From positions 128,001 to 192,000 of the forward strand of contig CAWJKZ010000009.1 in NCBI GenBank assembly GCA_963843575.1: DNA of 64,000 nt. Reading direction: 5' to 3'. Below are positions 419-49,386 of the stretch, piece by piece. The notes under the pieces were generated by a model. It saw nothing but the letters and a program-made list of their open reading frames with translations, was not told the origin of the DNA and ran no database searches. Within the stretch, counting starts at the first letter, position 1. Every line of letters starts with the position of its first letter. Source of the stretch: an uncultured Acidobacteriota bacterium. Its GTDB lineage: Bacteria > Acidobacteriota > UBA6911. Both the position numbers and the translations under genes were made by a program.

Positions 419-1879
419 CTACCGCTCATGTTCAGGACTCAAGTTGCTCAAAGAATCCTCAATCCCGATCCGGCCGGAACGTGCTGCCTTCAGGGCGACG
501 ACTACGTCGGTCATCGAGGTTTCCGCTCCGACGTTTCCGGGGAAGACGATATAGTTCATCCCGGGGAAGCGCGAGCCTGCGCCAAGGTGCCAGACCGGAA
601 CGCCGGGAATGATCTGCCCCGCAACGACTGCCCTCTGAACACCCAGGGCCTTCGCCGCGATGTCGTTTGATGTGATGCCCCCTTTCGCAAGGATATAGCG
701 GGGCTCGGCAGAAACACCGCTCACGGTCTCGATAAGGGCTGCCGCGACGCCGGCCTGCATCCGGATGCTCTCCTCCGCCGTCTCCCCCCTCACCAGCTCG
801 CGGCTAGTGTAGATCACCGTATCGCGATTGCCATGCATGGCCTGGTTCACCCCTTTCGTCACCCTCTCGATCTCGACCTTCCTGTCGCCGGAAAAGAGCC
901 GACTGACGTCCAACTCGACCCCGTGAACGCCGCCATGCCTCAGCAGGTGCATCAGCTGGCGCGTAGACATGGGCACGAAGGAGCCGACGACGACGAGGCC
1001 ACAAGCTCTTTGCACAGCAGGGAAATCCGATGAGGTTAACAGCGGGCGAGGAGTAAGACCGATGAGCGCCGGTATCAGGGCGGCGGCCGTCCGGAAGAGG
1101 AACCGCCGCCCCTGCTTCATAGCCCGGAAGACGGCCAGCGCGACGACATCCATGTCACTTCGCTCGCAGGCGTTGACGACGCAGAAGCTGCCGTCCGGAA
1201 ATCCTCCAAGTTTCCTCGCAACAATTCCTGGGCCTCCCTTGCGGATATCGTCCAGGGAGACGGAGCAGACATCCTCCCGTGCGACGGCGCCCCCGGTCTT
1301 CTCACAGACGTAGTCTCTCAAGTTTGAAAACGTGAAACCAAACGAGGGATCCTTTGCATAGGGGGTATCGGCCGCGGGGACCAATACGTCTCCGTCCTTC
1401 ACGTAGTGGATATCGTCGATAGTAAGACGTCCCCCCTCGAAGAAGGCGGGCACGCAGAGCGTCACAGCATTCTGCCACCCGAATTCCGCCTTCAGAGTAT
1501 CGATCTCGACTCGGAAGTGGCCGCGCAGCGTCGAGTCGCTGCGGCTCATGACCATGAATCGCCGGTTCGCTCGTGATGCGGCCTGCACCATGTTTCGGGC
1601 AACGTCGCGGTTCAGCGCCGCGGCCTCGGGGGCGGGCAGGCTTCTGCTGTTCGTGAGAATGAAAAAGACCGGGCTGCGCTCGAACTCCGCCGCCAGGACC
1701 TCGACAGGCCAGGCCGTGAGAATCGGGATGTCGTGGACGGTCTGACATCCCGTCGGGTCGTCGTCCATGATGACCAGCGTCGTATCGGCCTCGGCGAAAG
1801 CCTCACGGATCGACGGAACCAGGTCTTCCCTCCAGGGAGCCGGGAGGCTGCGCATGATTTCGGAACAGGGTATTCGCAT
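419..1879 (-). CDS. Four-carbon acid sugar kinase family (DUF1537; OtnK/DtnK/OiaK-like)
   Basis: 486-aa ORF with DDDPTG, SRSDSTLRGH, AKGGITS and PGNVG motifs. Confidence 0.9.
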   Translation of the reverse strand: MRIPCSEIMRSLPAPWREDLVPSIREAFAEADTTLVIMDDDPTGCQTVHDIPILTAWPVEVLAAEFERSPVFFILTNSRSLPAPEAAALNRDVARNMVQAASRANRRFMVMSRSDSTLRGHFRVEIDTLKAEFGWQNAVTLCVPAFFEGGRLTIDDIHYVKDGDVLVPAADTPYAKDPSFGFTFSNLRDYVCEKTGGAVAREDVCSVSLDDIRKGGPGIVARKLGGFPDGSFCVVNACERSDMDVVALAVFRAMKQGRRFLFRTAAALIPALIGLTPRPLLTSSDFPAVQRACGLVVVGSFVPMSTRQLMHLLRHGGVHGVELDVSRLFSGDRKVEIERVTKGVNQAMHGNRDTVIYTSRELVRGETAEESIRMQAGVAAALIETVSGVSAEPRYILAKGGITSNDIAAKALGVQRAVVAGQIIPGVPVWHLGAGSRFPGMNYIVFPGNVGAETSMTDVVVALKAARSGRIGIEDSLSNLSPEHER

Positions 1880-1964
1880 GGCGCCTTCTTCGAGTGCTTC
1901 GAGTCTCTCGAGGGAGCAGTAGATTCACCCCCAAAGCAGCCAAGACTCAAAAATCTCAAGGGTA

Positions 1965-1995
1965 CATAGTATGATATGTAATACATCATACTATG
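1965..1995. promoter_or_regulatory. Palindromic candidate operator in divergent promoter region
   Basis: CATAGTATGAT-N9-ATCATACTATG, perfect 11-bp arms, AT-rich in a high-GC background. Confidence 0.7.
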
Positions 1996-2013
1996 AGGTA
2001 AAGGAGCTCAGCA

Positions 2014-3333
2014 ATGTCCCGAAAGCGGATTCGCACCATCGTTCCTGTCGTGCTTCTGGCCTTCATGGGCGCGGTCACAACGGCGGTTGCCCAGACGGGC
2101 GTGTCGTTTCCCCTGCGGGTCAGCGAGGACAGAAGACACCTGGTCGACAGCAGAGGCGTGCCGTTTTTCATGAACGGCGACAGTCCATGGGAGATCAGCT
2201 GGCAGCTGACGAAGGAGGAAGCCGAAGCCTACCTTGAAAACCGGCGCCAGAAGGGGTTCAACACGGTGCTTGTCGACACCGTCCCGTACACCGAGTGGTC
2301 CGACCATCTCACCCAGACAAACCGCTACGGACATGCCCCCTTCCCGAGTACCGGGGACCTCGGGCAGCCCAACGAAGCGTACTTCAGGGATCTCGACGCG
2401 GTCGTCGAGGCTGCCGCCAGGAAAGGCATGCTGGTCCTGTTGTGCGCGGCGGATCTGGGCTCCAGCGACATGTGGCGGCCGCAGTACATCTCGAGCGGGG
2501 TGGCGAAGTGCGGCGAGTATGCCCGTTTCCTCGGCCGGCGCTTCAGCCGGTTCGACAACATCCTCTGGGTGCTCGGAGGTGATCGCGACCCTCATGGAGT
2601 CTTTGCCCATGTGGAAGAGATGGCCAGGGCATTGAGGGAGACGGCGCCGAAACATCTGATCACCTATCACGCGGGGGCGAAATCGAGTGGAATGTTCTTT
2701 CAGCCAGCGGATTGGTTCGATGTGAACATGTCCTACGGTTACCGCGACCCGCACGGCTTCGTGTCCGAGGACTACAAGAGAACACCGGTAAAGCCGGCCT
2801 TCCTTGGAGAAAGCGGATACGAGGGTGAAAACCTGGACGGGAGAGGCGGCAGCCCCCACCGCGTCCGGCGGCAGGCCTACTGGTCGGTTCTCTCCGGGGC
2901 GTTTGGCCACCTTTACGGTTCGGCGGCCTGGACGATGAAACCGCTCTGGAAGGACTGGATGGATTCGCCCGGCGCATTCCACATGTCTCACCTCGGCGCG
3001 TTTTTCCAATCGCTGCCCTGGCACAAACTTGTCCCCGATTTCGGGCGCAGCGTGATCGTCGAAGGCAACGAGGAGGGGAGCACGGTGGCGACTACGGCGC
3101 GGATACCCGACGGCAGTCTTGCGGTCAGCTACCTGCCGACGCCGCGGCGCGTCACTGTCGACCTTTCCCTGTTCAACGGCAAAGTGGAGGCGCGCTGGTT
3201 TGACCCGACCTGCGGGAAATACTTGCCGGTTGCCAATTCGCCGTTTGAAAACAAAGGCAGCCGCACCTTCACCACCCCCGAGAAGAACTCCGCCGGGGAC
3301 GGCGACCTCGTCCTTGTCCTTTCGGCTCTGTGA
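2014..3333 (+). CDS. Secreted DUF4038/GH140 apiosidase-like glycoside hydrolase with C-terminal putative collagen-binding domain
   Basis: Signal peptide; FPLRVS..RHLVD..GVPFF.NGD.PW, YLENRRQKGFN, W.LGGD, RRQAYW..LSGA.GH.YG, WFDP..G...DLVLVL. Confidence 0.85.
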   Translation: MSRKRIRTIVPVVLLAFMGAVTTAVAQTGVSFPLRVSEDRRHLVDSRGVPFFMNGDSPWEISWQLTKEEAEAYLENRRQKGFNTVLVDTVPYTEWSDHLTQTNRYGHAPFPSTGDLGQPNEAYFRDLDAVVEAAARKGMLVLLCAADLGSSDMWRPQYISSGVAKCGEYARFLGRRFSRFDNILWVLGGDRDPHGVFAHVEEMARALRETAPKHLITYHAGAKSSGMFFQPADWFDVNMSYGYRDPHGFVSEDYKRTPVKPAFLGESGYEGENLDGRGGSPHRVRRQAYWSVLSGAFGHLYGSAAWTMKPLWKDWMDSPGAFHMSHLGAFFQSLPWHKLVPDFGRSVIVEGNEEGSTVATTARIPDGSLAVSYLPTPRRVTVDLSLFNGKVEARWFDPTCGKYLPVANSPFENKGSRTFTTPEKNSAGDGDLVLVLSAL

Positions 3334-3560: not shown

Positions 3561-4826
3561 CTAAGAACGCATCGTTGCGTTCTTCACCAATGGGCGGGCG
3601 CGGACACCCAGGAATGCGATGTACGCCAGCGGCAGGAAAAGCACGAGCATTCCGGCGCGCAGGCCTGCCACGTCCGCAATCCTCCCTATGAGCACAGGCC
3701 CAAACGCTCCGCCGACGGCGCTGGAAAACAGTATTCCCATGAGCGCTCCGTGGTGCTTCTCCAGCGAATTGAGTGCGAGCTCGGCGATGAGCGGCCACAG
3801 CACGGAAAGGAAGAGTCCGACGAGCGGAAAGAAGATCAGTGCCATCGTTCTGTTGCCCAGGATCGCGCAGGAGAAGCATCCCAGCGCAAGCAAGCTGGAG
3901 ACCGTCACCACGCGCCGGCTTTCGAATATTTTGATTAGCAGCATTCCCCCCGCGCAGCCGGCCGTAAGCAGAGTCCAGAACCACGACAGCGTTCTTGCGC
4001 CCGTGGTTTCGGGGTCGCAGCCGTGGTATGCCTTCAGGAACTGCGACATCCAATTCGCGTTACCCTGCTCGCAAGCCGAATAGCAGAGAACGCCGCAGAC
4101 GAAAAGCAGGACGGTAGGGTTCTTCAACAGCCCGAGATAAACCTGGAGCGAACCGGCACGTTCCTCTTCCGTCAACTGCACGCGGGGAAACTTCACGAAA
4201 ATCAGCACGCCAATAGTCACAGCGAGCACGGCCGAGAAGATCCAGTATAGGGAAACCCAGTTGAACGATCCCTGCACCAGCCTGCTCAAGCCTTTGCCTA
4301 CAAGGCCCCCGCTCCCGGGGGCGGCGAGCCTCTGAACCGCCATCGAGTAGACGTGAGGGCTGAGCATCGAGCCGAGGCCGTACATCATATTGGTCAGCAC
4401 CGTGAAAAACGCCAGGTTCTCGCCTCCGCACGCGCTCTTCAGCAGGGGATAGAGCGGTATCTGCCCGGCAGCCAGCCAGCAGCCCACCAGGAATAATGAA
4501 ATCAGCACCACCGGATATTGGGGCCGTATTGCGAACGAAAAAGTCCCCGCGAACGCCAGAACGAAGGAGGCAACGACAACCTTTTTGGCCGAGAGCTTCT
4601 CGGTAAGGATGCCGGCGGGAATGGAGATTACGCCGAAGGCGATGAAATAGGAAAAAGGGAGCAGGGCAGCGAGCGTGTAGCTCAGACGCAGATCCCGGAT
4701 CATGTCCGGCAGCAGGGCCCCGACTGCATTCGCGATGACCCCTGTCTCGAACAGTATGCAGTTCAACAGCACTACGACGAAGTAGTTAATCCGCGGTTTG
4801 GGCGCCGCCGCTGGCAATGGGTTCAT
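3561..4826 (-). CDS. MFS sugar transporter (fucose/glucose-galactose permease-like)
   Basis: 421 aa, about 12 hydrophobic segments, SIPAGILTEK and GGA.GP..IG.IAD..GLR motifs. Confidence 0.85.
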   Translation of the reverse strand: MNPLPAAAPKPRINYFVVVLLNCILFETGVIANAVGALLPDMIRDLRLSYTLAALLPFSYFIAFGVISIPAGILTEKLSAKKVVVASFVLAFAGTFSFAIRPQYPVVLISLFLVGCWLAAGQIPLYPLLKSACGGENLAFFTVLTNMMYGLGSMLSPHVYSMAVQRLAAPGSGGLVGKGLSRLVQGSFNWVSLYWIFSAVLAVTIGVLIFVKFPRVQLTEEERAGSLQVYLGLLKNPTVLLFVCGVLCYSACEQGNANWMSQFLKAYHGCDPETTGARTLSWFWTLLTAGCAGGMLLIKIFESRRVVTVSSLLALGCFSCAILGNRTMALIFFPLVGLFLSVLWPLIAELALNSLEKHHGALMGILFSSAVGGAFGPVLIGRIADVAGLRAGMLVLFLPLAYIAFLGVRARPLVKNATMRS

Positions 4827-4974: not shown

Positions 4975-5000
4975 TGTCATAATATGTGTGATGTATGATA
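4975..5000. promoter_or_regulatory. Candidate operator (TGTAnGA-type heptad motif)
   Basis: TGTCATAATATGTGTGATGTATGATA in the divergent MFS/GH140 intergenic region. Confidence 0.55.
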
Positions 5001-5236
5001 GGATAACCGGCGTCAGCAGATCTACTACCTTCGCTGGGGCGATCCGCAATACCGGGGAGACAGTCCCATGAATCGAAGACGTTTCCTTGAGCCCCGGGGG
5101 GGGCGGAACCGTAATCCTTCCCTTCGGGCCGCGCTTTTCCCGGCCCCGCCGTCCTGTTCTGTTCAACCCGTAAACCCGGCTCGCGAGAGTGCCTTGCAGG
5201 CATGCCACAAAAACCAAGAATTCACGAGGGATCAAC

Positions 5237-6652
5237 ATGTTCGGGAAATTACTCGTCCTGTTGCTGGCCGCGTCCCCGGCGATTGCCGGTCCCGCATATC
5301 CCCTGAAGGTGAGCGCCAACAAGCGCTACCTGGTCGATCAGCGAGATGTCCCGGTGTTTCTCAACGGTGACACCGCGTGGTCGCTGATCGCGCAGGTCTC
5401 CAAGGAAGACGCCGAGCTCTACTTGCGTGACCGCGCCTCGAGGGGCGTCAATTCGATAATCGTCACCTCTCCCGAGGTCTACTACTGCAGCAACTGCCGG
5501 GACAAGGACGGTCCTCAGAATTTCTACGGCGACAGCCCGTTCAACAAAGTCAACGACTTCACCACTCCGAACGAGGCTTACTGGAAGCATGCCGACTGGG
5601 TCATCAGGAAAGCAGCCGAGTACGGCATCCAGGTCCTGCTCTGCCCCTGCTACACCGGCTTCCAGAAGAACAAGGACGGCTGGTGGACCGACGACTGGGA
5701 GAAGAGGAATTCCGTCGAGGACTGCGCCTGGTATGGAGGCTGGGTCGGTAAACGCTACCGGGACTTTCCGAACATCGTCTGGGTGATGGGAAACGACCGG
5801 AACCCCGGCGAGTTGTTCGGCAGAATCGACGCGATGGCCAAAGGGATCAGGTCGGAGGACGCGAATCACCTGTTTACCCATCATTCGCGCAGCGGTATGT
5901 CGTCAGCGGATCCCGCCGTTTGGGCGCCGCAGCCGGTTCCGTCCTGGCTGACACTGAACGGCACCTATGACTATCCAGGCGATGCGGCGCCGAGCGACTG
6001 GATGTACGTCAGATCCTACGCCGACTACAACCGCAACCCGGTAATGCCTTTCTACCTGTTCGAGTCGCATTACGAATACGCCAAGAGTTGGGGCAACGGC
6101 ACGATCCAGGGAATCCCGCTCAACGTCAGAAAAGAGGCCTACCAGTCCGCCTTCTGCGGTTCGACCGGGCACCATTACGGGAACAACGCGATCTGGGGAA
6201 TGAATTCCGTGCCCGATTATCAGCCGGGCTGCGACCTGCCGTGGAAGGAGCATTTCAAGGATCCCGGTACGTCGGTTCTTTTCATAGGGAAGCTGTTGAA
6301 CTCCAGGGCTTGGCACACCCTCGTGCCCGACCAGGATCACACGGTCATGACCGCCGGCTACGGTTCCGGGAGTTCCTACGCCCCATGCGCCAGGACTACC
6401 GACGGTGCGACGATGATGGCGTTCATTCCAGACTCGCGTTCTGTGACCATCGACATGGCGAAGATTTCAGGTAAAGCAGCCAAGTGCTGGTGGTTCAACC
6501 CGCGTTCAGGCGAAAGCCGTCCCATCGGCGACTACCCGACTTCCGGCAAGAAAGACTTCCGTACGCCGGACAACAACGACTGGGTGCTGGTCATCGATGA
6601 TGCGGCAAAGAAGCTCCCGGCCCCCGGCGCAACCCCGAAGGGGAAGCAATAG
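5237..6652 (+). CDS. Secreted DUF4038/GH140 apiosidase-like protein
   Basis: ATG at 5237 after GAGGGA; signal peptide; YPLKVS.NKRYLVDQ..PVF.NGDTAW; WWFNP.SG; DWVLVIDDA. Confidence 0.85.
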   Translation: MFGKLLVLLLAASPAIAGPAYPLKVSANKRYLVDQRDVPVFLNGDTAWSLIAQVSKEDAELYLRDRASRGVNSIIVTSPEVYYCSNCRDKDGPQNFYGDSPFNKVNDFTTPNEAYWKHADWVIRKAAEYGIQVLLCPCYTGFQKNKDGWWTDDWEKRNSVEDCAWYGGWVGKRYRDFPNIVWVMGNDRNPGELFGRIDAMAKGIRSEDANHLFTHHSRSGMSSADPAVWAPQPVPSWLTLNGTYDYPGDAAPSDWMYVRSYADYNRNPVMPFYLFESHYEYAKSWGNGTIQGIPLNVRKEAYQSAFCGSTGHHYGNNAIWGMNSVPDYQPGCDLPWKEHFKDPGTSVLFIGKLLNSRAWHTLVPDQDHTVMTAGYGSGSSYAPCARTTDGATMMAFIPDSRSVTIDMAKISGKAAKCWWFNPRSGESRPIGDYPTSGKKDFRTPDNNDWVLVIDDAAKKLPAPGATPKGKQ

Positions 6653-6709: not shown

Positions 6710-7870
6710 ATGGAATACTCCCGACAGGAATCCATCGTTGAAGCATACAAACCAGCGCTTGGTCGCAAGCGCTGCGACCTGATGACGCCGGCCCTGATAC
6801 TCGACCTTGACGTGGCACAGCAAAACATCCAGTGCATGGCGGAGCGCCTTCGCGACCTGCATGTCAACCTTCGCCCGCACGTAAAGGCGCACAAGTGCGC
6901 GGAGCTTGCCAGGCGGCAGATCCAGGCCGGGGCGATCGGAATCTGCACGGCAACCGTATGGGAGGCCATTGCGATGAGCCGGGCCGGCATTGAGGACATC
7001 TACATCGCAAACGAGGTCTGCGGCTGGGAGAAGATTTCCGCGCTGGCGCGCGAGGCTGCGCTCCGGCACATCGGTGTCGCAGTCGACGATCCCTGCAACG
7101 CGGCGGAACTCTCCGATGCGGCGCGCTGTGCGGGAAGCACACTGGACGTGCTGATCGAGGCGGATGTCGGCATGGGCCGCGGCGGAGTCCGGTCCGTCAA
7201 AGAAGCGCTCACACTGGCCGACTGCGTTACCAGACTTCCCGGTCTGTGCCTGCGCGGCATTCAGGCCTACGAAGGACACTGCATGCTGGAACGCGACCGG
7301 ACCGTGCGGACCCGAAAGGCCGCGGAAGCGATGGGCGTTGCCGCCGAGGTCATCGAAGCGTTGTCTGGGGCGGGATTCGCTTGCGAGACCGTGTCCGCCG
7401 GCGGCACCGGAACTTACGACATCACCGGCAGGGACCCGCGGGTGACCGAGATTCAGGCGGGATCGTACGTGTTCATGGACAACTTTCACGGCAGCCTCGT
7501 GCCGGGCTTCTCGCGGTCGCTCACGGTGCTTGCGACCGTGGTCATCCAACACGATCGCACGATTGTGCTGGATGCGGGCCTGAAATCCATCGGTGTCGAT
7601 GAAGCGCTTCCCACGATGGTGCCCTATCCTTTCTACCGCGCCGAGTTCCATGAGGAGCACGCGCTTTTTACCGTCGATGACCGGTGCGGGCTGAAGCGGG
7701 GAGACACGGTCGAGCTCATCCCAGGCTATGCCCCGACGACCGTGAATGTCTATGATGTGTACCATGTGGTCGAGGACGGGATAGTGACCGGAATCTGGCC
7801 GGTAGCACCACGCGGACCCGGGCACGCAGGCTGGTCAGCATCTTGGCCGCCGGCGGGGGACGCACAGTAG
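6710..7870 (+). CDS. DSD1/D-threonine aldolase family PLP-dependent enzyme (fold type III)
   Basis: TPALILDLD, LRPHVKAHK (PLP lysine), GIQAYEGH, GGTGTY, EIQAGSYVFMD, EEHA. Confidence 0.9.
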   Translation: MEYSRQESIVEAYKPALGRKRCDLMTPALILDLDVAQQNIQCMAERLRDLHVNLRPHVKAHKCAELARRQIQAGAIGICTATVWEAIAMSRAGIEDIYIANEVCGWEKISALAREAALRHIGVAVDDPCNAAELSDAARCAGSTLDVLIEADVGMGRGGVRSVKEALTLADCVTRLPGLCLRGIQAYEGHCMLERDRTVRTRKAAEAMGVAAEVIEALSGAGFACETVSAGGTGTYDITGRDPRVTEIQAGSYVFMDNFHGSLVPGFSRSLTVLATVVIQHDRTIVLDAGLKSIGVDEALPTMVPYPFYRAEFHEEHALFTVDDRCGLKRGDTVELIPGYAPTTVNVYDVYHVVEDGIVTGIWPVAPRGPGHAGWSASWPPAGDAQ

Positions 7871-7902
7871 ATAGTTCGTATTTCGCCCCAGGAGGAGAGA
7901 CC

Positions 7903-9412: not shown

Positions 9413-10195
9413 ATGGGTAAGGGTACTGGCAGGGTTGCCGGGAAGCGAGCCATCGTTACAGGGGCCGGCAGCGGCATCGGGCGGGCGACCGCGATTTTGT
9501 TTGCACGCGAGGGTGCCAGGGTCGGGCTGATCAGCCGGCGCGAATCGATGTTGCGCGAGGTGGAGTCGGTCATCGCGGAAGAGGGCGGGGAATCTCTGGT
9601 TCTGCCGTGCGATGTCTCGAAACAAGATCAGGTCGCCGGCGCCTTCGCGGCGGTCGAGGAACGCTGGGGAGGCGTGGATGCCTGCGTTGCGGTTGCGGGC
9701 ATCGAACGCTGGGCGGAGGGAGACGACCGCGTCGACCGCCTGGAGCTCGCGGTCTGGCAGGAGATCATCGACATCAATCTGACCGGGATGTTCCTGACTC
9801 TGAAATGCGCGGTCCGCGCCATGCTGAAGATCGGAGGCGGGGCTATCGTCGTAACAGGCTCGCCGACCGGCCTGTACGGTTTTGCGGCAGGCGAAAATGC
9901 TTACAGCGCCAGCAAAGCTGGCTGTCATGGACTCGCCCGGGTCCTCGCGAACGAAGTCGCCCCGGAGCACATCCGGGTAAATATCGTCGTGCCGGGATTC
10001 ATCGAGGCCGGGGTCAACGAGAAATTCATGCGAGAGAACCCACAGGGAGTGGAGGACTATTGTCGGGCCACTCCCATGCGTCGTATAGGGCAACCTGAAG
10101 AGGTCGCACCGATGAACCTCTTCCTCTGCACCGACGAGGCATCGTTCACTACTGGCGGCTACTTTGTAGTGGACGGCGGTTATATCGCAATCTGA
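9413..10195 (+). CDS. Short-chain dehydrogenase/reductase
   Basis: TGAGSGIG, YSASK, IRVN...PG motifs. Confidence 0.92.
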   Translation: MGKGTGRVAGKRAIVTGAGSGIGRATAILFAREGARVGLISRRESMLREVESVIAEEGGESLVLPCDVSKQDQVAGAFAAVEERWGGVDACVAVAGIERWAEGDDRVDRLELAVWQEIIDINLTGMFLTLKCAVRAMLKIGGGAIVVTGSPTGLYGFAAGENAYSASKAGCHGLARVLANEVAPEHIRVNIVVPGFIEAGVNEKFMRENPQGVEDYCRATPMRRIGQPEEVAPMNLFLCTDEASFTTGGYFVVDGGYIAI

Positions 10196-25618: not shown

Positions 25619-25621
25619 AAC

Positions 25622-35289: not shown

Positions 35290-35314
35290 GCTGAACTGGA
35301 GGGGGGGCAGAAGA

Positions 35315-36276: not shown

Positions 36277-36288
36277 AGGAGCGCATGG

Positions 36289-41780: not shown

Positions 41781-42668
41781 ATGCCGTACCACTGCGAGTC
41801 CCTGATTAGGGATATTTCCGCCAGAGCCCAGGAGTTCCGGATCCAGGTGCTGCGTATGGTCTGGGAGAGCCAGAGCGGCCACCTCGGCGGCGCGTTCTCG
41901 TGCGCGGAGATAGTGGCCGCGCTTTACTTGCACCACCTCAAAGTGGACCCATCCAGGCCCGACTGGCCGGAGCGGGACAGGTTCCTGTTCTCCAAAGGTC
42001 ACGCATGTGCGTTGCTGTATACGGCCCTTGCTCACCGAGGGTTCTTCCCCATGGATGAATTGCGTACCTTTCGCAAGCTCGACAGCCGTCTGCAGGGACA
42101 CCCCGAGCGCCAGAAGTGTCCCGGGGTGGAGATCCCAGCTGGCCCCCTTGGTCATGGCATCGCCGTCGGCGTCGGCATGGCACTTGCGCTCAGGGGCGGC
42201 GGCAAGCCGTCTTCTCTGAGCGCCCCGTCCGCGCGAGCGGCGGCGGGAAAGGTTTACGTCCTGCTCGGAGACGGCGAGATCAATGCCGGCGTCGTCTGGG
42301 AAGGCGCCATGGCCGCCCACAAGTTCAGGCTTGGAAACCTAACGGCGATTCTGGACTACAACGGTATCCAACAGACTGGGGCAACGGCTGACGTGATGCC
42401 CATCGATGACGTCGCGGAAATCTGGCGCGCTTTCGGGTGGCACGTTCAGGAAATCGACGGTCACAACGTGGGGGAAATCCTGAACGCGTTGGATCGCGCC
42501 GACGAAGTCCACGCGAAGCCGGCCATCATCATCGCCCGCACGGTCAAGGGAAAAGGCGTCAGCTTCTTTGAGTATGATCACCGCTGGCACGGGATGGTGC
42601 CGAACGCCGAGCAGTTCGAGAAAGCGCTGCTCGAGTTGGAGGGGGGGCTTTGTCAATGGCAGAACTGA
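41781..42668 (+). CDS. Split transketolase, N-terminal subunit 2
   Basis: SGHLGGAFS, RDRFLFSKGH, LQGHP, GPLGHG, GDGEINAG. Confidence 0.9.
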   Translation: MPYHCESLIRDISARAQEFRIQVLRMVWESQSGHLGGAFSCAEIVAALYLHHLKVDPSRPDWPERDRFLFSKGHACALLYTALAHRGFFPMDELRTFRKLDSRLQGHPERQKCPGVEIPAGPLGHGIAVGVGMALALRGGGKPSSLSAPSARAAAGKVYVLLGDGEINAGVVWEGAMAAHKFRLGNLTAILDYNGIQQTGATADVMPIDDVAEIWRAFGWHVQEIDGHNVGEILNALDRADEVHAKPAIIIARTVKGKGVSFFEYDHRWHGMVPNAEQFEKALLELEGGLCQWQN

Positions 42669-43615
42669 TCCCCATGCGCAAGGCTTACGGGGAGGCCCTT
42701 GTCGCACTCGGGGCAGCCAATCCCAACGTGGTAGTTTTGAGCGCCGACGTCGCCAACTCGGATTTCAGTTACATGTTCGGAGAGGCCTACCCCGACCGGT
42801 TTTACAACGTCGGGATCGCGGAACAGAGCCTCGTTGACGTGGCGGCCGGACTGGCCTATGCGGGAAAGATACCGTTCGCGAACACGTTTGGCATATTTTT
42901 GGCGACACGCGCACTGGAGATGGTCCGTACGCATCTGTGTTACGGCCAGGCAAACGTGAAATTGATGGCGGCCTACGCAGGACTGTCGGATTCCTTCGAC
43001 GGCCCTACCCATCACTCCATTACGGATATCGCCATAATGAGATCGCTCCCGAATATGACGGTGGTTGTGCCGGGAGATGCGGCGGCCGTCGCGAAACTTC
43101 TGCCCCAGGTGGCGGCATGGAAAGGTCCCGTGTATTTCCGGTTGAATCGGAACGAGGTCCCGAAGGTATTCGACGATGACTACAATCCGCAGATCGGCAA
43201 GGGCGTCGTCCTGCGACCCGGAACCGATGTGACCCTGATCGGCTGCGGGCTGATGGTTAGCCGTTGCCTGGAGGCAGCGGATCAGCTGCTCCGGCAGAGG
43301 ATAAACGCGCGCGTCGTCGAATTGCACACGATCAAGCCGCTGGACGCGGAAACCGTGCTCAAAGCGGCCCGCGAGACAGGCGCGATTGTCACCGCAGAAG
43401 AGCACAGCATTATCGGCGGGCTTGGCGGGGCTGTCGCGGAGTTGTTGAGTGACTCCTGCCCCACTCCCGTAAAGCGCGTCGGAATAGAAGACCGGTTTGC
43501 CGAGTCCGGACCCTATCACGCCCTGCTGGACCGGTATGGCATGAGCGTGGGCCGAATAATCGACGCCGCCCGCGCCGCGTTGTCGCATCGAACACTGCGG
43601 GCCGGATCGGCATAG
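42656..43615 (+). CDS. Split transketolase, C-terminal subunit 2
   Basis: GIAEQ, DGPTHHS, TIKPLD, TAEEHSIIGGLG. Confidence 0.9.
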   Translation: MAELIPMRKAYGEALVALGAANPNVVVLSADVANSDFSYMFGEAYPDRFYNVGIAEQSLVDVAAGLAYAGKIPFANTFGIFLATRALEMVRTHLCYGQANVKLMAAYAGLSDSFDGPTHHSITDIAIMRSLPNMTVVVPGDAAAVAKLLPQVAAWKGPVYFRLNRNEVPKVFDDDYNPQIGKGVVLRPGTDVTLIGCGLMVSRCLEAADQLLRQRINARVVELHTIKPLDAETVLKAARETGAIVTAEEHSIIGGLGGAVAELLSDSCPTPVKRVGIEDRFAESGPYHALLDRYGMSVGRIIDAARAALSHRTLRAGSA

Positions 43616-43651
43616 AACCTTTCGTCCGTTTGCGTGATTTCCGGTTTGCCG

Positions 43652-44491
43652 ATGAAGCTGGCATTGGCCACCCACACTTCCGATGTGTCCACCGCCCCCG
43701 GCGTGGCATTGCTCTCCGGTTCCTTCCCCGCACGCCTGAGCAAAGCCCGTAGAATCGGCTATGACGGCGTGGAACTGATGGTCGCGCGCCCTCGGGAGCT
43801 ACTCCCTCCGCGCCTTCGGGCCGAGATCGATGCGGCGGGGCTGCAGATCTGCGCGGTTGCCAGCGGGCCGGTGTTCATGCTGGATCGATTGTCTCTCCTG
43901 GCTGAAACCGCGCAACGCGCCCGCGAGGCCGAAGTGCGTCTGCACGAACTGATATCCCTGGCCGCCGCTATCGGGGCCCCTCTGGTTACGGTGGGCAGTT
44001 TTCGCGGACGCCTGGCCTGGGCCGGCGGGGCTTCGGCGCGAGCCTCACTGAAGTCCGTGTTGTCCAGAGCCGCGGATCACGGTGCCGGCTGCGGCGTGCG
44101 GCTAGTCCTCGAGCCTCTGAACCGGTATGAGAGCGACGTTGTCAACACCTGTGCCGAGGCTCTCGCCTTCATCGCTGAAACCGGACACGATCACCTCGGC
44201 GTTCTGCTGGACACTTTCCACGTCAACATCGAGGAAGCGTCGATCCTCGCGTGCTTCCGCGAAGCCCTGGCCGCGGGCAAACTGTGGCACGTCCATCTGG
44301 GAGACAGCAATCGCCGTCCCCCCGGACAGGGGCACATCGACTTTGAATCGATAGTCCGGACCCTGCAATCGGCCGGGTATGACGGCTGGCTCTCGGCGGA
44401 GCTTCTGCCGTTCCCGGATCCCGACGGCGCAGCGGAAGCAACACTGACACACATGCGGCGAATCACACAAACTGCAGAGGGCAGGTCATGA
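43652..44491 (+). CDS. Second sugar phosphate isomerase/epimerase (IolO-like)
   Basis: GYDGVEL, LEPLNRYE, DTFHVNIEE, HVHLGDSNRRPPGQGHIDF. Confidence 0.88.
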   Translation: MKLALATHTSDVSTAPGVALLSGSFPARLSKARRIGYDGVELMVARPRELLPPRLRAEIDAAGLQICAVASGPVFMLDRLSLLAETAQRAREAEVRLHELISLAAAIGAPLVTVGSFRGRLAWAGGASARASLKSVLSRAADHGAGCGVRLVLEPLNRYESDVVNTCAEALAFIAETGHDHLGVLLDTFHVNIEEASILACFREALAAGKLWHVHLGDSNRRPPGQGHIDFESIVRTLQSAGYDGWLSAELLPFPDPDGAAEATLTHMRRITQTAEGRS

Positions 44492-44787
44492 CTGCGCTTC
44501 CGGTGACCAGGTCGCAGATCGTCGCACGCCTCACTGAGAACAACATCCCGTTTGTCGAGATGCCTCTCCGGCAACAGGACTTGAACCGGCGTGGCGATTC
44601 CATATGCGTGTACAACGACGACGGAGGCATCGGCGAATTCGGGGAGATCGAATGCATGGGGCAGGCCGTCGGGTGGAACGGCCGGACCTCCTCCACCGAC
44701 ACGCTTGCGCTCTGGTGCTATGTCGGCCGGCTCCCGGATCTCCAGCTCATCGGCCGTCACCTGCTTGGAATCGAGGTTGCGTTATGA
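44488..44787 (+). pseudogene. Probable internally deleted remnant of a DUF6786-like protein
   Basis: Coupled to both neighbours by ATGA overlaps; short N-terminus joined to SICVYNDDG..GEFGEIEC.G...LW.YVG C-terminal motif (family recalled). Confidence 0.5.
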
Positions 44788-45452
44788 ACAAGCTCCTGGT
44801 GCTCGTCCACACCGTGCGGCCGTTGATCCCGGAATTCGACCGGCTGTGCGCCGAGCTGCTGCCTGGTGTGCAAGTGATGCACATTCTCGATGAACCGCTT
44901 CTAGCCCGCATCCGTCAGCGCGGGTCGCTTGGTCCCGAGGACGCCGAGCGGTTGCAGGAGCACGCCGGGATTGCCGGGCAAGTCGGGGCGGCAGCGGTGC
45001 TGGTCACGTGTTCGACAGTTTCGCCGTGTGTCGACGGCGTTCGACAGGGTGCGGGGATTCCAATCGTCAAGATCGATGAAGCCATGATGAGCGAGGCCGT
45101 GCGGGCCGGCACGCGCATCGGGGTCCTCGCCACGGCACGCACCACGCTCGAACCGACCAGGCAAAGGCTTGTCGCAAGAGCCGCGGCTTGCGGGAAGAAA
45201 ATCGAGCTGGAGGTGATTTATGTGGACCACGCACTGGACGCGCTGCTGCGCGGAGACGGGCCGACTCACGACTCGCTGGTTCGGGAGGCCGTGGTCGGCC
45301 TCGCCGGCAGGGTTGATGCAGTGGTGCTTGCACAGGCTTCGATGGCGCGGGTCAAGGCAGTGCTGGCCGACGGCAGTGTCGGCATCCCGATACTCTCCAG
45401 CCCTCATCTTGCGCTCGCGTCCGTGCGCGCCCTGGTAGGCACCGGGCAGTGA
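44784..45452 (+). CDS. Asp/Glu/hydantoin racemase family protein
   Basis: LVHT, ILDE.LL, VTCST, KIDEAM, VLAT..TTL.PT, LAQASM. Confidence 0.8.
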   Translation: MNKLLVLVHTVRPLIPEFDRLCAELLPGVQVMHILDEPLLARIRQRGSLGPEDAERLQEHAGIAGQVGAAAVLVTCSTVSPCVDGVRQGAGIPIVKIDEAMMSEAVRAGTRIGVLATARTTLEPTRQRLVARAAACGKKIELEVIYVDHALDALLRGDGPTHDSLVREAVVGLAGRVDAVVLAQASMARVKAVLADGSVGIPILSSPHLALASVRALVGTGQ

Positions 45453-45485: not shown

Positions 45486-45770
45486 ATGAGCTCATTGCGG
45501 ATCCTGTCGGATGAACAGCTCAGGAGCATTCACGATGCGTCATTGACTGTCCTGGAAGAAACCGGCATGGAGGTCGATCACGAACAGGCGCGCGAAATCC
45601 TTCGAGCCTCCGGCGCCGTTGTCGACCACGATCGGAAGATGGTCCGGTTTCGGCCGGTTACAGGGCACCCCCAACTGCCGCAGGACGTCTCGCGCGAACT
45701 CGAGCGCATTGTTGCGTCTGGCGATCAGGAACTGGCCGGGAAGGCCGCGGCCTCGCAGCAGCGAGATTGA
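45486..45770 (+). pseudogene. Third MttB-family gene collapsed by in-frame internal deletion
   Basis: First ~57 aa match 15147 (LSdEQL..IH..SL.VLE.TGM.VDH..AREIL...GA.VDHD.K.VRF); last ~35 aa match its end (LP..V.REL..IV...D.ELAG..AAS). Confidence 0.85.
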
Positions 45771-45816: not shown

Positions 45817-47748
45817 ATGGAATCCAGAAACATTCTGTACTATGGCAGTCCGGAGCCCTTGCCCTCGCCGCGGCCTCTCCAGGCGGGGCCGCTGAGCCTC
45901 AATTATGAGAATGGGGACCTCCGGAGCATCCGCCTGGGTGAGCGTGAGATCGTGCAGCGGATCTACATGGCTGTCCGAGACCGCGACTGGGGCACCGTGC
46001 GGAACGAAATCAGCGGTGAAGCCGTAGAAGCGGGCGAGGACTGGTTTCGGATTTCCTACCATTCTGAAAACCGCCGGGACGAGATTCACTTCAGGTGGGA
46101 CGCAGTGATTACCGGCACGAGCGAGGGCACGATCCAGTTCTCTTTCGACGGTCTGGCGGTCACGTCGTTTCTCCAGTCCCGGATCGGCCTGTGCATACTC
46201 CACCCCATGCTCGAGTGTGCGGGTCAATCCTGCAGGGTCGAACGCGCAGACGGCCCGGTCCGGACGGGCGTCTTTCCGGTCTATATCACATCAGCACAGC
46301 CGCTGGAGCCCTTCGCGGAGATGACCACCTTGTCGTACCCCGCAGGCGAAGACACGACGGTGGAATTGCGGTTCACCGGCGATCTGTTTGAGATGGAGGA
46401 CCAGCGGAATTGGACCGATGCGTCGTACAAGACGTTCTGCACCCCCTTGAGACTTGGCAGTCCGCGGCCGATCGAATCGGGTACCAGGGTGAATCAGTCG
46501 GTGACCCTACGGTTGTCCGGCAGGCGGCCTCACGCCAGGAGCAAAGCGCCTGCTCGCCAGATCATATCGATCTCTGTGGATCGCTCCGCCGAAACTCCTC
46601 TCCCTCGCATCGGACTGTGCGCCCCTTCCCACGGTACTCCAGCGACCGAACGGGAGCTGAACCGGCTGCGCGCCCTGAACCTGTCGCACCTGAGAGTCGA
46701 TGTCAGACCGTCGGAACCCGGGTGGCAGGAGCGCCTGCACCGCGTAATTCCCGAGGCACGATCTCTGGGAATCCCTCTTGAAGTAGCCCTCCACCTGTCC
46801 GGTAATGCGGGTGCGGAACTTGACGAGGTTGCTGCGAGGATCGAGAATGCTCGCGCCAGCGTGAGTCGCTGGATGGTGTTTCACGTGGAGGAGATCGTCC
46901 CCTCAGATAAGTGGATTGCGCTCGCGCGTGAGAGACTGGGCGCTTCGCAACGTGGTGCACTGATCGGCAGCGGTACCGACGCCGATTTCTGCGAGATCAA
47001 CAGCCGGCGGCCTGCCCATAACGGGTCCGGGTTCCTGACCTATTCGCTCAATCCCCAGACACACGCGTTCGACAACGCATCGCTGATCGAGACTCTTCCC
47101 GTCCAGGCATTGACAGCCCGGACCGCAAGGCTGTTCGCTGGGCGACGGCCGATTCTTATCGGCCCAATCACCCTCAAGATGCGCTTCAACCCATACGCGT
47201 CGGCACCGCCCGTTACAGGTCCCGGAATATTGCCGCCGCAAGTCGATCCGCGTCAGATGTCGCTCTTCTGCGCGGGATGGACGCTCGGGAGTGTGAAGTA
47301 TCTCGCCGAAAGCGGCGAAGTGGAAGGGATCACCTATTACGAAACAACCGGGTGGCGAGGTGTGATGGAAACAGAACAGGGATCTCCTCCCGAGTTGTTC
47401 CCGTCCGCGCCGGGTACGGTCTTCCCCGTATACCATGTTTTCGCGGCACTTGCAGGCTTCACGGGAGGAGAGGTGCTCCGGACAAGGTCGAGCCTGCCAA
47501 CAGGCGTGGATGCGCTGACTCTGAGAAAAAGGGGAAGCATGCGGATGCTCGTAGCGAATGTCAGCCCCACGACACACCAGGTGCGGATCGGGGACTTTGA
47601 CCGTGTCTGCTGCAAGTTCCTTGGCGAAACATCGATGCCCGCTGCGCTGCAGGAACCGGAGGAATTCTGGAGCAGAACCGGTGTCATTCTGCAACAGCCG
47701 TGGCTCGAGATGATGCCATTCGGCCTGGCTATCCTGGATATCCGGTAG
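45817..47748 (+). CDS. apnL: D-apionate lactonase-like protein
   Basis: AGPLS...ENGDLR.I, VRDRDWGT, G.CILHP, GD.FEMEDQRNWTDASYKT, HAFD..S..ETL, DPRQ..LF.A.WT.G (recalled ApnL signatures). Confidence 0.75.
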   Translation: MESRNILYYGSPEPLPSPRPLQAGPLSLNYENGDLRSIRLGEREIVQRIYMAVRDRDWGTVRNEISGEAVEAGEDWFRISYHSENRRDEIHFRWDAVITGTSEGTIQFSFDGLAVTSFLQSRIGLCILHPMLECAGQSCRVERADGPVRTGVFPVYITSAQPLEPFAEMTTLSYPAGEDTTVELRFTGDLFEMEDQRNWTDASYKTFCTPLRLGSPRPIESGTRVNQSVTLRLSGRRPHARSKAPARQIISISVDRSAETPLPRIGLCAPSHGTPATERELNRLRALNLSHLRVDVRPSEPGWQERLHRVIPEARSLGIPLEVALHLSGNAGAELDEVAARIENARASVSRWMVFHVEEIVPSDKWIALARERLGASQRGALIGSGTDADFCEINSRRPAHNGSGFLTYSLNPQTHAFDNASLIETLPVQALTARTARLFAGRRPILIGPITLKMRFNPYASAPPVTGPGILPPQVDPRQMSLFCAGWTLGSVKYLAESGEVEGITYYETTGWRGVMETEQGSPPELFPSAPGTVFPVYHVFAALAGFTGGEVLRTRSSLPTGVDALTLRKRGSMRMLVANVSPTTHQVRIGDFDRVCCKFLGETSMPAALQEPEEFWSRTGVILQQPWLEMMPFGLAILDIR

Positions 47749-47814
47749 AAACGGGCTTGCTGCGTGCCGTCTGCGCAGCCGTCCACCGGCCTGTGCAGTA
47801 GTTACCCATGTACG

Positions 47815-49386
47815 TCAATCTGATCCGCTCGGCAAGGCCAGGTAGAGCACCGCATCTCCCGCGAACGGAGCTCTGAGCGAACGCCTGGCTCCCCCCTGCA
47901 GCCGGCCGCCCTTGCTTGCCACGCCTGTCCGTGGATTAAACCACTCCGCGACCAGCGGTCCCGGAGCGGCCGACAGGTCCACCGTCACATCCCCGCCCTG
48001 GGGCAGGTAGATCAAGTAGTCCTTACCAGGATTCGCCAGACAGTACGCTGGAGAGGACAAATCAGCCCGCGGTGCCATGGCGGCCAGATTGACTCTCCTG
48101 GCGTAGCTGAGGGTCTGCCCCATCGCCTTGCGGGCAGCCGCCAACCCTGCACGCGGATCGGCCATGGGATCGGTTTGATGGATCTCCATCAAGATGGGAT
48201 TGTAGCCACGCGTGAAGCTCTTCCACACCCAACTCCTGGAATAATCCGCATCGTCCGCAAAGTTCAGCCACCCCAGGTGATCTGTATCGTAGATGATGAC
48301 TTTGCTTCCATCCGTCGCGACAGGGTCAAGCACCGCCTGGCCGAGTTTCTGTGCCTCTCCGCGACCCGCAAGATTGCGGGGGGAGATCCAGTCGGACGGA
48401 CCGGAAAATAGCCAGGAATTGTCCCCCTCGTTGATGGCAGTCATGCCCACAGGATGCTGTTTGGGCTTCCCGCGCTCGTACTCCTTTATGAAGCGGACGA
48501 AATGGTATTGCCACTCCGATGGCTTGGAAAGGTATAGGTCCTCGTTGGCGATTTCAAATAGCACGTTGTCCAGGTCGTTGACCGTGTCGACCACCTTTCG
48601 AACATAGTTCTCCTGGATCCGTGTAATCGCCGGGATAGCCAGGCTGTGCACTTCCTCGCCCTCTCCGTTGCCGTTCGGGTCGCCGTGGATGCCGTTAATG
48701 TTATTGTCGTTGTGGAACATGTGGTACTTGAATACCCGGCGGGTCTTCAGGTAATCCCACACGCTCCACCCTTGAAACAGCATCACCGAAACATAGATGC
48801 CGCGGTCCCGGGCGTCGATAACGCGCGAGCGCAATCGATCGAAGTACGCCTGATTCGTTTTTGCCAGATCGAACTTCAATCCCCCGTCGCTGGATTTCCC
48901 GGGACCGGTGCGCTCGAAAGGCATGGGCTCTGCGTAATAATCGTCCGGCGACCCCGGGCTGTCATCCGCCCGGGGGCTCTCCCACGCCCACATCCGCATG
49001 AAGTTGTGATTGTGAGAACTGAGAAAATTCAGGTAAGCGTTATAGTCGAATCGAACACGGTCCCGAGGGGGCGAATACTCCTGGAGGCTAGCCCAGGTGT
49101 GCGAGCCGGTAAGATAGATCGCTTTGCCGCTGCCGTCCGTGAAATAACGCGGATTTGTCGGGTGAACGCGCAGAGGGCCCCGGGCTTTTTCTGCCCCGGC
49201 AGATGTGATCGTGAAGATTCCGGCAAGCAACACAGCCGCAGCAAACACCGATAGCTTCCGGCACAGGAGCCCTCGCTCAAACTCGTGCGGTGTGCAGCGT
49301 CCCTTTTGGGATCGACTACAGACGATCCCGTGAGTACGGTCTGTCAGGTTGATGGTGGGCATCAGTGGGTCATCCGTGGGTTCCAT
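47815..49386 (-). CDS. Secreted DUF6298/DUF4038-related glycoside hydrolase with putative collagen-binding C-terminus (start uncertain; signal-like segment near 49260)
   Basis: GPLRVHPTNPRYFTDGSGKAIYLTGSHTW, NVLFEIANE, DTDHL, WFNPRTG, APF.GDAVLYL. Confidence 0.8.
   Translation of the reverse strand: MEPTDDPLMPTINLTDRTHGIVCSRSQKGRCTPHEFERGLLCRKLSVFAAAVLLAGIFTITSAGAEKARGPLRVHPTNPRYFTDGSGKAIYLTGSHTWASLQEYSPPRDRVRFDYNAYLNFLSSHNHNFMRMWAWESPRADDSPGSPDDYYAEPMPFERTGPGKSSDGGLKFDLAKTNQAYFDRLRSRVIDARDRGIYVSVMLFQGWSVWDYLKTRRVFKYHMFHNDNNINGIHGDPNGNGEGEEVHSLAIPAITRIQENYVRKVVDTVNDLDNVLFEIANEDLYLSKPSEWQYHFVRFIKEYERGKPKQHPVGMTAINEGDNSWLFSGPSDWISPRNLAGRGEAQKLGQAVLDPVATDGSKVIIYDTDHLGWLNFADDADYSRSWVWKSFTRGYNPILMEIHQTDPMADPRAGLAAARKAMGQTLSYARRVNLAAMAPRADLSSPAYCLANPGKDYLIYLPQGGDVTVDLSAAPGPLVAEWFNPRTGVASKGGRLQGGARRSLRAPFAGDAVLYLALPSGSD

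Follow-up and report, generated by a model that had tools for sequence, protein, structure and literature searches.

The 64,000-nucleotide stretch analysed here (the window; contig CAWJKZ010000009.1 of assembly GCA_963843575.1, in our numbering G000:C9:128001-192000, that is, contig C9 of genome G000) comes from an uncultured soil Acidobacteriota bacterium of the UBA6911 lineage and carries a catabolic island in which GH140-type glycoside hydrolases lie among sugar-acid, transketolase and corrinoid methyltransferase genes. We put at about 45% the probability that this island encodes a variant downstream route for an apiose-type substrate, one that would run without the ApnO and RuBisCO-like steps. 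The link to apiose is one of association, drawn from the predicted gene products: GH140 genes, one of them close to a solved apiosidase, a dehydrogenase of the ApsD subfamily and an intact lactonase of the ApnL family. Apiose is a signature sugar of plant pectin (rhamnogalacturonan II (RG-II), apiogalacturonan), for which four bacterial routes have been described, in Proteobacteria, Actinobacteria and gut anaerobes; the Acidobacteriota of soils play a major and poorly understood part in breaking down plant polymers. The island spans about 51 kb (approximately C9:126.5-177.5 kb), comprising window positions 1-49545 and one further GH140 gene to the left, and is made up of at least six transcription units. 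Its GC content is 0.612, against 0.641 for the genome (6.68 Mb, 27 contigs, 88% complete).

Coding frames were picked by third-position GC, and 50 open reading frames (ORFs) of the window were scanned against Pfam and 20 against NCBIfam. These scans bore out the gene inventory of an initial annotation made from the letters alone (Table 1): the TonB-dependent receptor, the DUF1537 kinase, two split transketolases (TK1 and TK2), two TIM barrels and the E1/E2, pyridoxal phosphate (PLP) and B12 methyltransferase genes (two E1 pairs, one E2, three PLP enzymes and a three-part corrinoid set) are all in place, and genes for ApnO, a RuBisCO-like protein or an FGGY kinase were, as stated there, found nowhere in the window. 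Where that annotation had counted eight secreted GH140 enzymes, seven genes exceed the PF13204 gathering score of 26.5 bits (44.7-230.7 bits), the eighth (47815-49545) falls short and is marginal, and a ninth lies outside the window. Secretion is suggested by signal-peptide-like N-termini in six of the genes, judged by eye. Besides the receptor, the island has inner-membrane transporters of three kinds: MFS, EamA and APC-type. The eight in-window genes share only 20-38% identity with one another. Similarity to solved apiosidases was searched for two GH140 genes: the one at 2014 scores 152 bits to PDB 8t9w and 121 bits to 3kzs/5msy, and the ninth gene, which is the closest, 322 and 251 bits, respectively.

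The presence of ApsD-like and ApnL-like genes, likewise proposed initially, held up in both cases. The dehydrogenase falls in the same Gfo/Idh/MocA subfamily as PDB 5uhw, against which it scores 265.5 bits over its full length, whereas any other solved member reaches at most 79 bits. PDB 5ui9/5uhw is a Gfo/Idh/MocA oxidoreductase of Agrobacterium radiobacter; we take the entries 5uhw-5uib to be ApsD, and the family assignments of ApsD and OiaC used here are likewise presumed. The lactonase matches NF049900 with 318.8 bits, covering positions 3 to 593 of the 595 in the model; the start at 45817 is confirmed, and the protein keeps each of the 63 columns in which 76 homologues show at least 95% conservation. 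A solved homologue was sought and none was found. The lactonase does not reach the equivalog cut-off of 750 bits, and neither does a second copy in the same genome that lies beside ApnO (321.9 bits), so that in this phylum the cut-off is too stringent to be decisive.

Downstream of these entry enzymes, the island offers a kinase, transketolases, ketose-epimerase-like TIM barrels and an Asp/Glu-racemase-family protein, several of which belong to widespread and highly conserved groups. TK1 has orthologues at 65-82% identity in 80 metagenome loci, and proteins 73-84% identical to TK2 are widespread, with thousands of relatives; a homologue search with TK2 gave only the generic name "transketolase". 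The nearest named relatives of both PF01261 barrels are IolO/TM0416-type ketose (3-)epimerases. The racemase-family proteins encoded beside TK1/TK2 orthologues form a subfamily: all 25 that were aligned (24 homologues, loci L013-L182) have a single Cys, in the motif (T/S)CS(T/S), together with an AQxSM motif at what we take to be the site of the second catalytic Cys in two-base racemases. The DUF1537 kinase, a single-copy gene in the genome, matches named kinases weakly (DtnK model, 82 bits with a cut-off of 450), and a tree of 14 sequences was star-like, with weak support (83) and long-branch warnings, and does not separate OiaK-type from TK1-associated kinases.

A third component consists of 2-oxoacid dehydrogenase, PLP and methyltransferase genes. 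No E3 gene is found in the island. The BhcC/D-serine-dehydratase-like PLP enzyme scores 243 bits against NF045642 (cut-off 690). The MttB-superfamily protein at 7843-9381 is of the non-pyrrolysine type, since its gene has no in-frame stop. The gene for the uroporphyrinogen decarboxylase (URO-D)/MtaA-CmuA-family methyltransferase and the start of the ApsD-like gene share 13 nt. The presence of methyltransferase and transaminase genes suggests methylation or amination of the true substrate or of a group that it carries.

The neighbourhoods of these genes were examined in other genomes and in metagenome contigs, each locus bearing a number with the prefix L. Within 10 kb of 80 ApnL loci, taken from 598 relatives, we counted ApsD-like genes in 26, ApnO in 22, GH140 in 12, DUF1537 in 6, transketolases in 4 or 5, MttB and BhcC-like genes in 2 each and a URO-D-like gene in 1. 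Around TK1 in metagenome contigs (80 loci; 30 of at least 9 kb and 50 shorter), the racemase-family gene occurs in 19, GntR in 12, DUF1537 in 7, the class III aminotransferase (AT-III) in 5, GH140 and the SDR oxidoreductase in 4 each, TK2 in 3 or 4, the class IV aminotransferase (AT-IV) in 3, URO-D-like genes in 2, ApnL in 1 and E1 in none. Some of these loci come close to the arrangement in the window. L104 reads GntR, TK1, TK2, TIM barrel, racemase-family gene, ApnL, and in L059 two transketolase and two TIM-barrel genes, the racemase-family gene and GntR are followed directly by ApnO and ApnL. In L104, L113, L118, L122 and L124 the set of TK1, TK2, TIM barrel, racemase-family protein, AT-III, AT-IV and SDR is repeated at 50-83% identity; TK1 and TK2 are accompanied by AT-III, AT-IV and SDR (55-66%) in L118, L122 and L124. 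Taken singly, AT-III orthologues (61-66%) adjoin TK1/TK2 in L118, L122 and L124, AT-IV orthologues (60-67%) are found in L029, L122, L123 and L124, and SDR orthologues (55-63%) lie beside TK1/TK2 in L118, L122 and L123. L029 has a Gfo/Idh/MocA gene and ApnL, then directly a URO-D-like gene (65%), and also AT-IV (67%) and E1 alpha (79%); L080 has GH140, ApnL, BhcC-like and SDR genes; and L087, from another Acidobacteriota metagenome-assembled genome (MAG), combines a TonB-dependent receptor, three GH140-type genes, BhcC-like, ApnL-like, FGGY, Rieske oxygenase, MttB and SDR genes. Judged by this gene order, the extra genes are conserved partners, in a minority of loci; whether they are conserved neighbours, as was asked initially, is thus affirmed for some of them by the recurrences in L029, L059, L087, L104, L118, L122 and L124, and no further than that minority.

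Across genomes the island is rare. Any ApnL homologue was found in 9 of 41 genomes searched (G000 and the unpublished G040 included), and an orthologue of the island's copy (93% identity) only in the same-genus genome among 40 relatives. Conservation across Acidobacteriota, raised initially as a check, therefore extends to that genome, G001, in which the island is present, and the orthologous ApnL is in no other genome searched. We conclude that the catabolic island is real and, in the genomes sampled, restricted to one genus.

Part of the island shares a sequence motif. Four divergent promoter regions (1880-2013, 4827-5188, 15071-15131 and 32887-33231) carry an AT-rich element built around GTATGAT, and five of the seven GTATGAT copies of the window fall in these regions, which total about 0.9 kb; 3.07 copies would be expected in the window, and seven were reached in 1 of 100 shuffles. 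The sites are kept in G001 even where their flanks diverge. A genome-wide scan with TGATGTATGATA at up to two mismatches gave 67 matches, four of them in the island; it is circular, because the pattern came from those same sites, and was not used as support. The GntR/FCD regulator is a candidate binder of the motif. Initially one motif had been placed over all units; it is present in four of at least six promoter regions, and none was found at the operon of the ApnL-like gene or upstream of 47815-49545. The island is probably co-regulated in large part. Between the GntR and AT-III genes a hairpin with an 18-bp stem (40273-40360; the 194-nt spacer folds at -73.1 kcal/mol, z -3.07) is probably a terminator that separates two units.

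The remainder of the genome holds a second set of apiose-related genes. On contig C12, two sugar ABC systems, an ApnL paralogue, a Gfo/Idh/MocA paralogue, ApnO, a BtpA-family gene, an M29-like gene and an FGGY kinase gene form one locus. Its Gfo/Idh/MocA protein, whose gene is the neighbour of ApnL and ApnO, scores 302 bits to PDB 5uhw and is 58% identical to the island's dehydrogenase; its ApnL is 43% identical to the island's copy. ApnO, a single-copy gene (C12:232065-232892, 276 aa), scores 302 bits (E 3e-89) to PDB 5t57, which is named ApnO (bioRxiv 10.1101/2020.08.24.261826); ApnO is KARI-like according to PMC13753588. As the canonical ApsD-ApnL-ApnO set sits on C12, the island's ApsD and ApnL are paralogues. 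Thus, of the two genes that were to be sought outside the window, apnO was found and a gene for a RuBisCO-like protein was not: no RuBisCO-like or RuBisCO-large gene (PF00016) was detected in G000, which is 88% complete. FGGY proteins have seven matches in the genome, none of them on contig C9. PdxA (a single gene, on C10) had been considered as an ApnO candidate and was dropped once ApnO proved to be KARI-like, and the models NF049899 and NF049901, tried for ApsD, ApnO and Apt, represent unrelated families. A looser second set on contig C19 (G000:C19:223800-262400) has a split transketolase, AT-III, E1 alpha, E1 beta, a URO-D-like gene and MttB homologues, with no match there to any GH140 or ApnL query from the window. 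In G001 (about 81% complete) the island is present, and ApnO was not found, either by protein search or with PF16896, although a positive control worked; a C12-type locus was not found there either.

In the variant route, GH140 enzymes would free D-apiose, or a closely related branched furanose, from plant-type oligosaccharides that the cell imports, and the ApsD-like and ApnL-like enzymes would convert the released sugar to an aldonate. The aldonate carbon would then enter the conserved module of kinase, racemase-family protein, epimerase and transketolases in place of the ApnO and RuBisCO-like steps, and E1/E2 might oxidise a ketol fragment. ApnO from C12 may help in trans; it is probably not required, since the sister genome has the island and no ApnO was found there. 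This route stays plausible because the set of transketolase, racemase-family, aminotransferase and SDR genes recurs near ApnL and GH140 in unrelated lineages, because the URO-D-like gene is tightly coupled to ApsD and ApnL genes, and because of that sister genome. A broader version, to which we give tentative and rather doubtful standing, is that TK1, TK2, the epimerase-like TIM barrel, the single-Cys racemase-family protein, AT-III, AT-IV, SDR and the ApnL-like enzyme, in some lineages with DUF1537 and the corrinoid system, would constitute an undescribed pathway, present in several phyla, that needs neither ApnO nor a RuBisCO-like protein nor an FGGY kinase to bring a GH140-released branched sugar, whether apiose or a methylated or aminated relative of it, to intermediates of the pentose-phosphate pathway. 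The literature that was searched, to a limited extent, contained no description of such a GH140/apiose island.

Several observations weigh against a variant route. Given the C12 set, the lack of ApnO in the island does not by itself demand a new route, and apiose could be handled at the C12 locus; the genomes compared are incomplete (G001 only about 81%, G000 88%). The extra genes lie beside ApnL or TK1 in few loci, many of which are short. The shared motif is absent upstream of the 40425-47748 operon, which holds AT-III, TK2, a TIM barrel, the racemase-family gene and the ApnL-like gene, and two genes of this operon are internally deleted in G000. A quick tree of 78 ApnL homologues places the window copy, together with its orthologue in G001, on a long branch (0.7), because of which the substrate of the island's ApnL may differ; the two group weakly (SH-aLRT 88) with L087 and two actinobacterial sequences, and all five members have neither ApnO nor an ApsD-like gene within 10 kb. 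The island's transketolase pairs are no closer to AptA/AptB of the E. coli SE15 apiose cluster (ECSF_RS02670-02715, with gene names from PMC13001218; identities of 38%/37% for TK2 and 37%/31% for TK1) than is the pair on C19 (44%/35%). Finally, no search result allows a substrate to be assigned. The new route proposed initially for apiose or a related sugar is partly supported. It has the ApsD and ApnL family membership, the lack of ApnO, RuBisCO-like and FGGY genes in the window and some conserved extras on its side, and the canonical set on C12, the rare co-occurrence and the motif-free ApnL-like operon against it; that set on another contig goes halfway towards overturning it, as some of the extra genes are still conserved neighbours.

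Two other explanations, both of which we regard as rather unlikely, would account for the same genes. The island could serve as a front end that liberates apiose, with catabolism at the C12 locus, the remaining operons being unrelated and merely co-located; betaine-type demethylation, catabolism of D- or hydroxy-amino acids, an acetoin-type dehydrogenase and transketolases would then stand side by side. In favour of such a division, the C12 locus has ApnO (with its 302 bits to PDB 5t57), ABC transporters and genes for a BtpA-family protein and an FGGY kinase; the IS110 and DDE transposases on the left flank and the lower GC content of the island point the same way, and so do the orthologous ApnL in only the same-genus genome of 40 relatives, the low co-occurrence of the extra genes and the looser C19 set without matches to the window's GH140 or ApnL queries. 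Mere co-location is harder to reconcile with the motif, which ties together the kinase/GH140, MFS/GH140-MttB, E1/MttB2 and TonB-dependent receptor/TK1 units, with the 13-nt overlap of the URO-D-like and ApsD-like genes and the URO-D-like orthologue that follows ApnL in L029, with the order TK2, TIM barrel, racemase-family gene, ApnL repeated in L104 and L059, and with G001, which has the island and in which the C12-type locus was not found.

Alternatively, the substrate might be something other than apiose, a different sugar or sugar acid borne on a glycoside; the diverged ApsD-like, ApnL-like and GH140 paralogues would then act on it together with TK1, TK2, the epimerase, the racemase-family protein, AT-III, AT-IV, SDR and the corrinoid methyltransferases. 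It might be a sugar with methyl or amino groups, or an amino-polyol from which transamination would yield a ketose for cleavage by transketolase. Of the partners of TK1 and TK2, the aminotransferases are the best conserved (60-66% identity), the TIM barrels resemble ketose 3-epimerases and not a known apiose isomerase, and the in-window GH140 enzymes, as divergent from one another as they are, lie far from the solved apiosidases (152 bits for the gene at 2014). The long ApnL branch, in a weakly supported clade without nearby ApnO or ApsD, fits this as well, as do the MttB and BhcC-like genes of L087 and its Rieske oxygenase, again with MttB. Apiose is nevertheless favoured by the ninth GH140 gene, which adjoins the kinase and is near a solved apiosidase, by the presence of both ApsD-like and ApnL-like genes, which as a pair define the oxidative apiose route, and by L059, where ApnO and ApnL come directly after the transketolase, TIM-barrel and racemase-family genes; nor can a candidate for the other substrate be named from any search result. 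Of these readings the variant route for an apiose-type substrate remains the one we prefer.

The reading of at least nine island genes takes two or three frames; these are three of the GH140 genes, the two E1 alpha genes, one E1 beta, the second MttB, the permease and probably the 2-hydroxyacid dehydrogenase. If these breaks were real and disabling, together with two stretches of 775 bp and 1.18 kb that are deleted inside genes relative to G001, the island would be decaying and largely non-functional, which we consider very improbable. The DNA of G001 is 88-95% identical and its island syntenic, and each break in the window corresponds to a single-base indel relative to it; MttB2, both E1 alpha genes, the second E1 beta and one copy of the GH140 gene at 19034 are intact there, and conversely the TonB-dependent receptor and AT-III genes are intact in the window and broken in G001. 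Single bases make up 169 of the 197 alignment gaps, and of the 51 frame-changing indel clusters inside genes, 26 add a base in the window and 25 lack one there. The break in the second E1 alpha was assigned to the window by a query with the intact C19 paralogue. Among the contig pieces listed for one public run (X1, Logan contigs, share 0.06), compared over window 12000-21000, none spans a frame-break site and no indel is listed at these sites, which favours neither reading. Since the indels are mutually exclusive between G000 and G001 and mostly of one base, the frame breaks are, on the aligned DNA, most likely assembly errors and not decay, and pseudogenisation of the island was rejected on these grounds. 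The two deletions just upstream of the ApnL-like gene are real structural differences: the window lacks 775 bp of a gene for a 357-aa protein of unknown family that is present in G001 (about 44573; L013:6866-7939) and of which the N-terminal part of the 44604-45452 ORF is a remnant, and a third MttB gene is reduced to a fragment.

Table 1. Features of the island in window coordinates (the first row in contig coordinates), in order of position; bit scores are followed by the model cut-off where one applies.
Feature	Position	Strand	Match or remark
Ninth GH140 gene, just left of window, adjoins kinase	C9:126536-127990		PF13204 276.5 bits
DUF1537 kinase (four-carbon acid sugar kinase family)	419..1879	-	PF07005 170 bits, PF17042 125 bits
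Operator-like AT-rich site 1	1962..2000		perfect 11-nt inverted repeat CATAGTATGAT / ATCATACTATG, 9-nt spacer
GH140 paralogue, signal-like N-terminus	2014..3333	+	PF13204 231 bits
MFS transporter	3561..4826	-	PF07690
Operator-like site 2	4975..5010		TGATGTATGATA
GH140 paralogue	5189..6652	+	PF13204 213 bits
Alanine-racemase-fold PLP enzyme, BhcC/D-serine-dehydratase-like	6710..7870	+	PF01168, PF14031
MttB-superfamily methyltransferase	7843..9381	+	PF06253 246 bits; TIGR02369 331 bits (cut-off 525)
SDR oxidoreductase	9413..10195	+	
Class IV (branched-chain or D-amino-acid) aminotransferase, AT-IV	10227..11183	+	PF01063
GH140 paralogue with DUF5060 N-domain, two frames	11361..12999	-	1-nt indel relative to G001 at 12161
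E1 beta of 2-oxoacid/acetoin-type dehydrogenase	13034..14050	-	
E1 alpha of 2-oxoacid/acetoin-type dehydrogenase, three frames	14065..15070	-	intact in G001
Operator-like site 3	15080..15115		
Second MttB, two frames	15132..16611	+	break near 15852; intact in G001
Corrinoid (B12-binding) protein, MtgC-like	16629..17264	+	PF02310, PF02607; NF047996 207 bits (cut-off 370)
GH140 paralogue, frame-broken	17334..18948	+	PF13204
GH140 paralogue, frame break at 20000	19034..20504	-	intact in one G001 copy
D-2-hydroxyacid dehydrogenase fragment	20426..21016	-	PF00389, model covered in part only
Two EamA-family transporters	21013..22848	-	
GH140 paralogue	22891..24270	-	PF13204 200 bits
Amino-acid/APC-type permease	24343..25621	-	six 1-nt indels relative to G001
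ApsD-subfamily Gfo/Idh/MocA dehydrogenase	25622..26644	-	265 bits to PDB 5uhw
URO-D/MtaA-CmuA-family methyltransferase	26632..27891	-	PF01208 105 bits; TIGR01463 63 bits (cut-off 235)
GH140 paralogue	27994..29379	-	PF13204 214 bits
TonB-dependent receptor	29446..32886	-	CarboxypepD_reg and OMP_b-brl_4
Operator-like sites 4 and 5	32940-32975 and 33180-33215		common TGTAAGATGTC
Split transketolase TK1 (N and C subunits)	33232..35289	+	
Second E1 alpha and E1 beta	35264..37360	+	breaks near 35991 (alpha) and at 36853 (beta); both intact in G001
PF01261 TIM barrel, IolO/ketose-3-epimerase-like	37382..38218	+	NF041099 179 bits (cut-off 300)
E2 dihydrolipoamide acyltransferase	38225..39454	+	
GntR/FCD regulator	39547..40230	+	
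Class III aminotransferase, AT-III (GSA-aminomutase/GntE-like)	40425..41759	+	
Split transketolase TK2	41781..43615	+	
PF01261 TIM barrel	43634..44491	+	closest solved relative TM0416
Asp/Glu-racemase-family protein	44604..45452	+	one conserved Cys; real start probably M61
Third MttB remnant	45486..45770	+	1.18-kb internal deletion relative to G001 (L013:8622-10095)
ApnL-family lactonase paralogue	45817..47748	+	NF049900 E 7.1e-95
Distant GH140-like/DUF6298 protein	47815..49545	-	PF13204 20.8 bits; DUF6298 and Collagen_bind_2 also matched

Further features were recorded within the island and along its borders. Intergenic hairpins of CGCGGAT-type heptads occupy 3334-3560 and 11184-11360 (inverted repeat I12, 23-nt arms, 91% complementary), and a TCTGCG-rich short repeat (...CTCTGCGGTG) stands at one end of two minus-strand genes, in two good copies that are 75% alike (19024-19059 and 27904-27939). 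Rfam at gathering thresholds gave no riboswitch or other RNA in the window, and no tRNA was found there. Left of the ninth GH140 gene, G000:C9:118800-121500 (L011:10793-13543) holds IS110-family and DDE transposase genes and a CarboxypepD_reg receptor fragment; transposases at this flank would fit an accessory region. Right of the island, the reading of a GH123-like gene (51834-53776) takes two frames, and the ORF at 54471-55349 covers only the last ~160 residues of an AcrB-type pump, both probable assembly frame breaks. Among the ApnL loci, a RuBisCO-like gene lies between ApnL and DUF1537 in L040 and probably also in L063. L049 and L050 (Verrucomicrobiota MAG contigs) also pair ApsD-like, DUF1537 and ApnL genes, and in their genomes a search for RuBisCO-like genes found none; these two loci further carry an ApbA/PanE-type reductase, a phosphotriesterase-glyoxalase fusion, an FAA hydrolase and an ABC transporter, and may represent another non-canonical apionate route.

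If the module of transketolases, racemase-family protein and aminotransferases does carry on from ApsD and ApnL, a fifth solution for the downstream steps would be at hand, and several widespread, highly conserved and unnamed enzyme subfamilies would gain functions. Were the substrate instead aminated or methylated, the island would point towards a first link of GH140 enzymes to corrinoid-dependent methyl transfer. The canonical locus on another contig illustrates that a step missing from one window should not be taken to mean that the pathway is missing.

Compared with known systems, the hydrolases resemble the GH140 apiosidases (Bacteroides thetaiotaomicron BT1012, PDB 3kzs/5msy; PDB 8t9w) in combining PF13204 with a Collagen_bind_2 C-domain, in their signal-like N-termini and in their position beside a TonB-dependent receptor. 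They differ in that nine paralogues are gathered in one island, most of them distant from the solved enzymes, and their specificity is a prediction from sequence. Unlike a polysaccharide utilization locus of Bacteroidota, the island is an Acidobacteriota-type receptor locus without SusD. It shares with glycine betaine systems of the MtgB-MtgC type a non-pyrrolysine MttB, an MtgC-like corrinoid protein and an MtaA/CmuA-family protein; here, all scores stay under the equivalog cut-offs and the genes sit within an island for glycans and sugar acids. As in acetoin and 2-oxoacid dehydrogenase complexes, there are two E1 alpha/beta pairs and a lipoyl-bearing E2, but the island has no E3, and one set shares its transcription unit with a split transketolase and a gene of the ketose-epimerase-like kind.

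The D-apiose transketolase pathway (MetaCyc PWY-8089) uses ApsI, AplK and AptA/AptB, AplK of E. coli SE15 being an FGGY kinase. The island is similar in that its split transketolase pairs adjoin PF01261 TIM-barrel genes and that the best match of TK2 in SE15 is AptA (40%, 195 bits), the next being TktB, a full-length transketolase of 699 aa, with 157 bits. In contrast to that pathway, it lacks an FGGY kinase, the best AplK-like gene of the genome being on C24 and the best AptA/AptB-like pair on C19; its barrels resemble ketose 3-epimerases; and it has two transketolase pairs instead of one, one of them sharing an operon with E1/E2. The oxidative pathways for D-apiose and for D-apionate reportedly go back to Carter et al. 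(2018, Nat Chem Biol). According to PMC13753588, they proceed through ApsD, ApnL and ApnO, and then through OiaK and the RuBisCO-like OiaT/OiaX or through OiaC-LerK. With these routes the island has in common a dehydrogenase of the ApsD subfamily, a lactonase of the ApnL family and a DUF1537 kinase. It departs from them in having no ApnO, with no RuBisCO-like protein found in the genome, and its ApsD-like and ApnL-like copies are diverged paralogues in separate operons, 19 kb apart. Unlike any published route, it adds transketolases, E1/E2, PLP enzymes and corrinoid methyltransferases.

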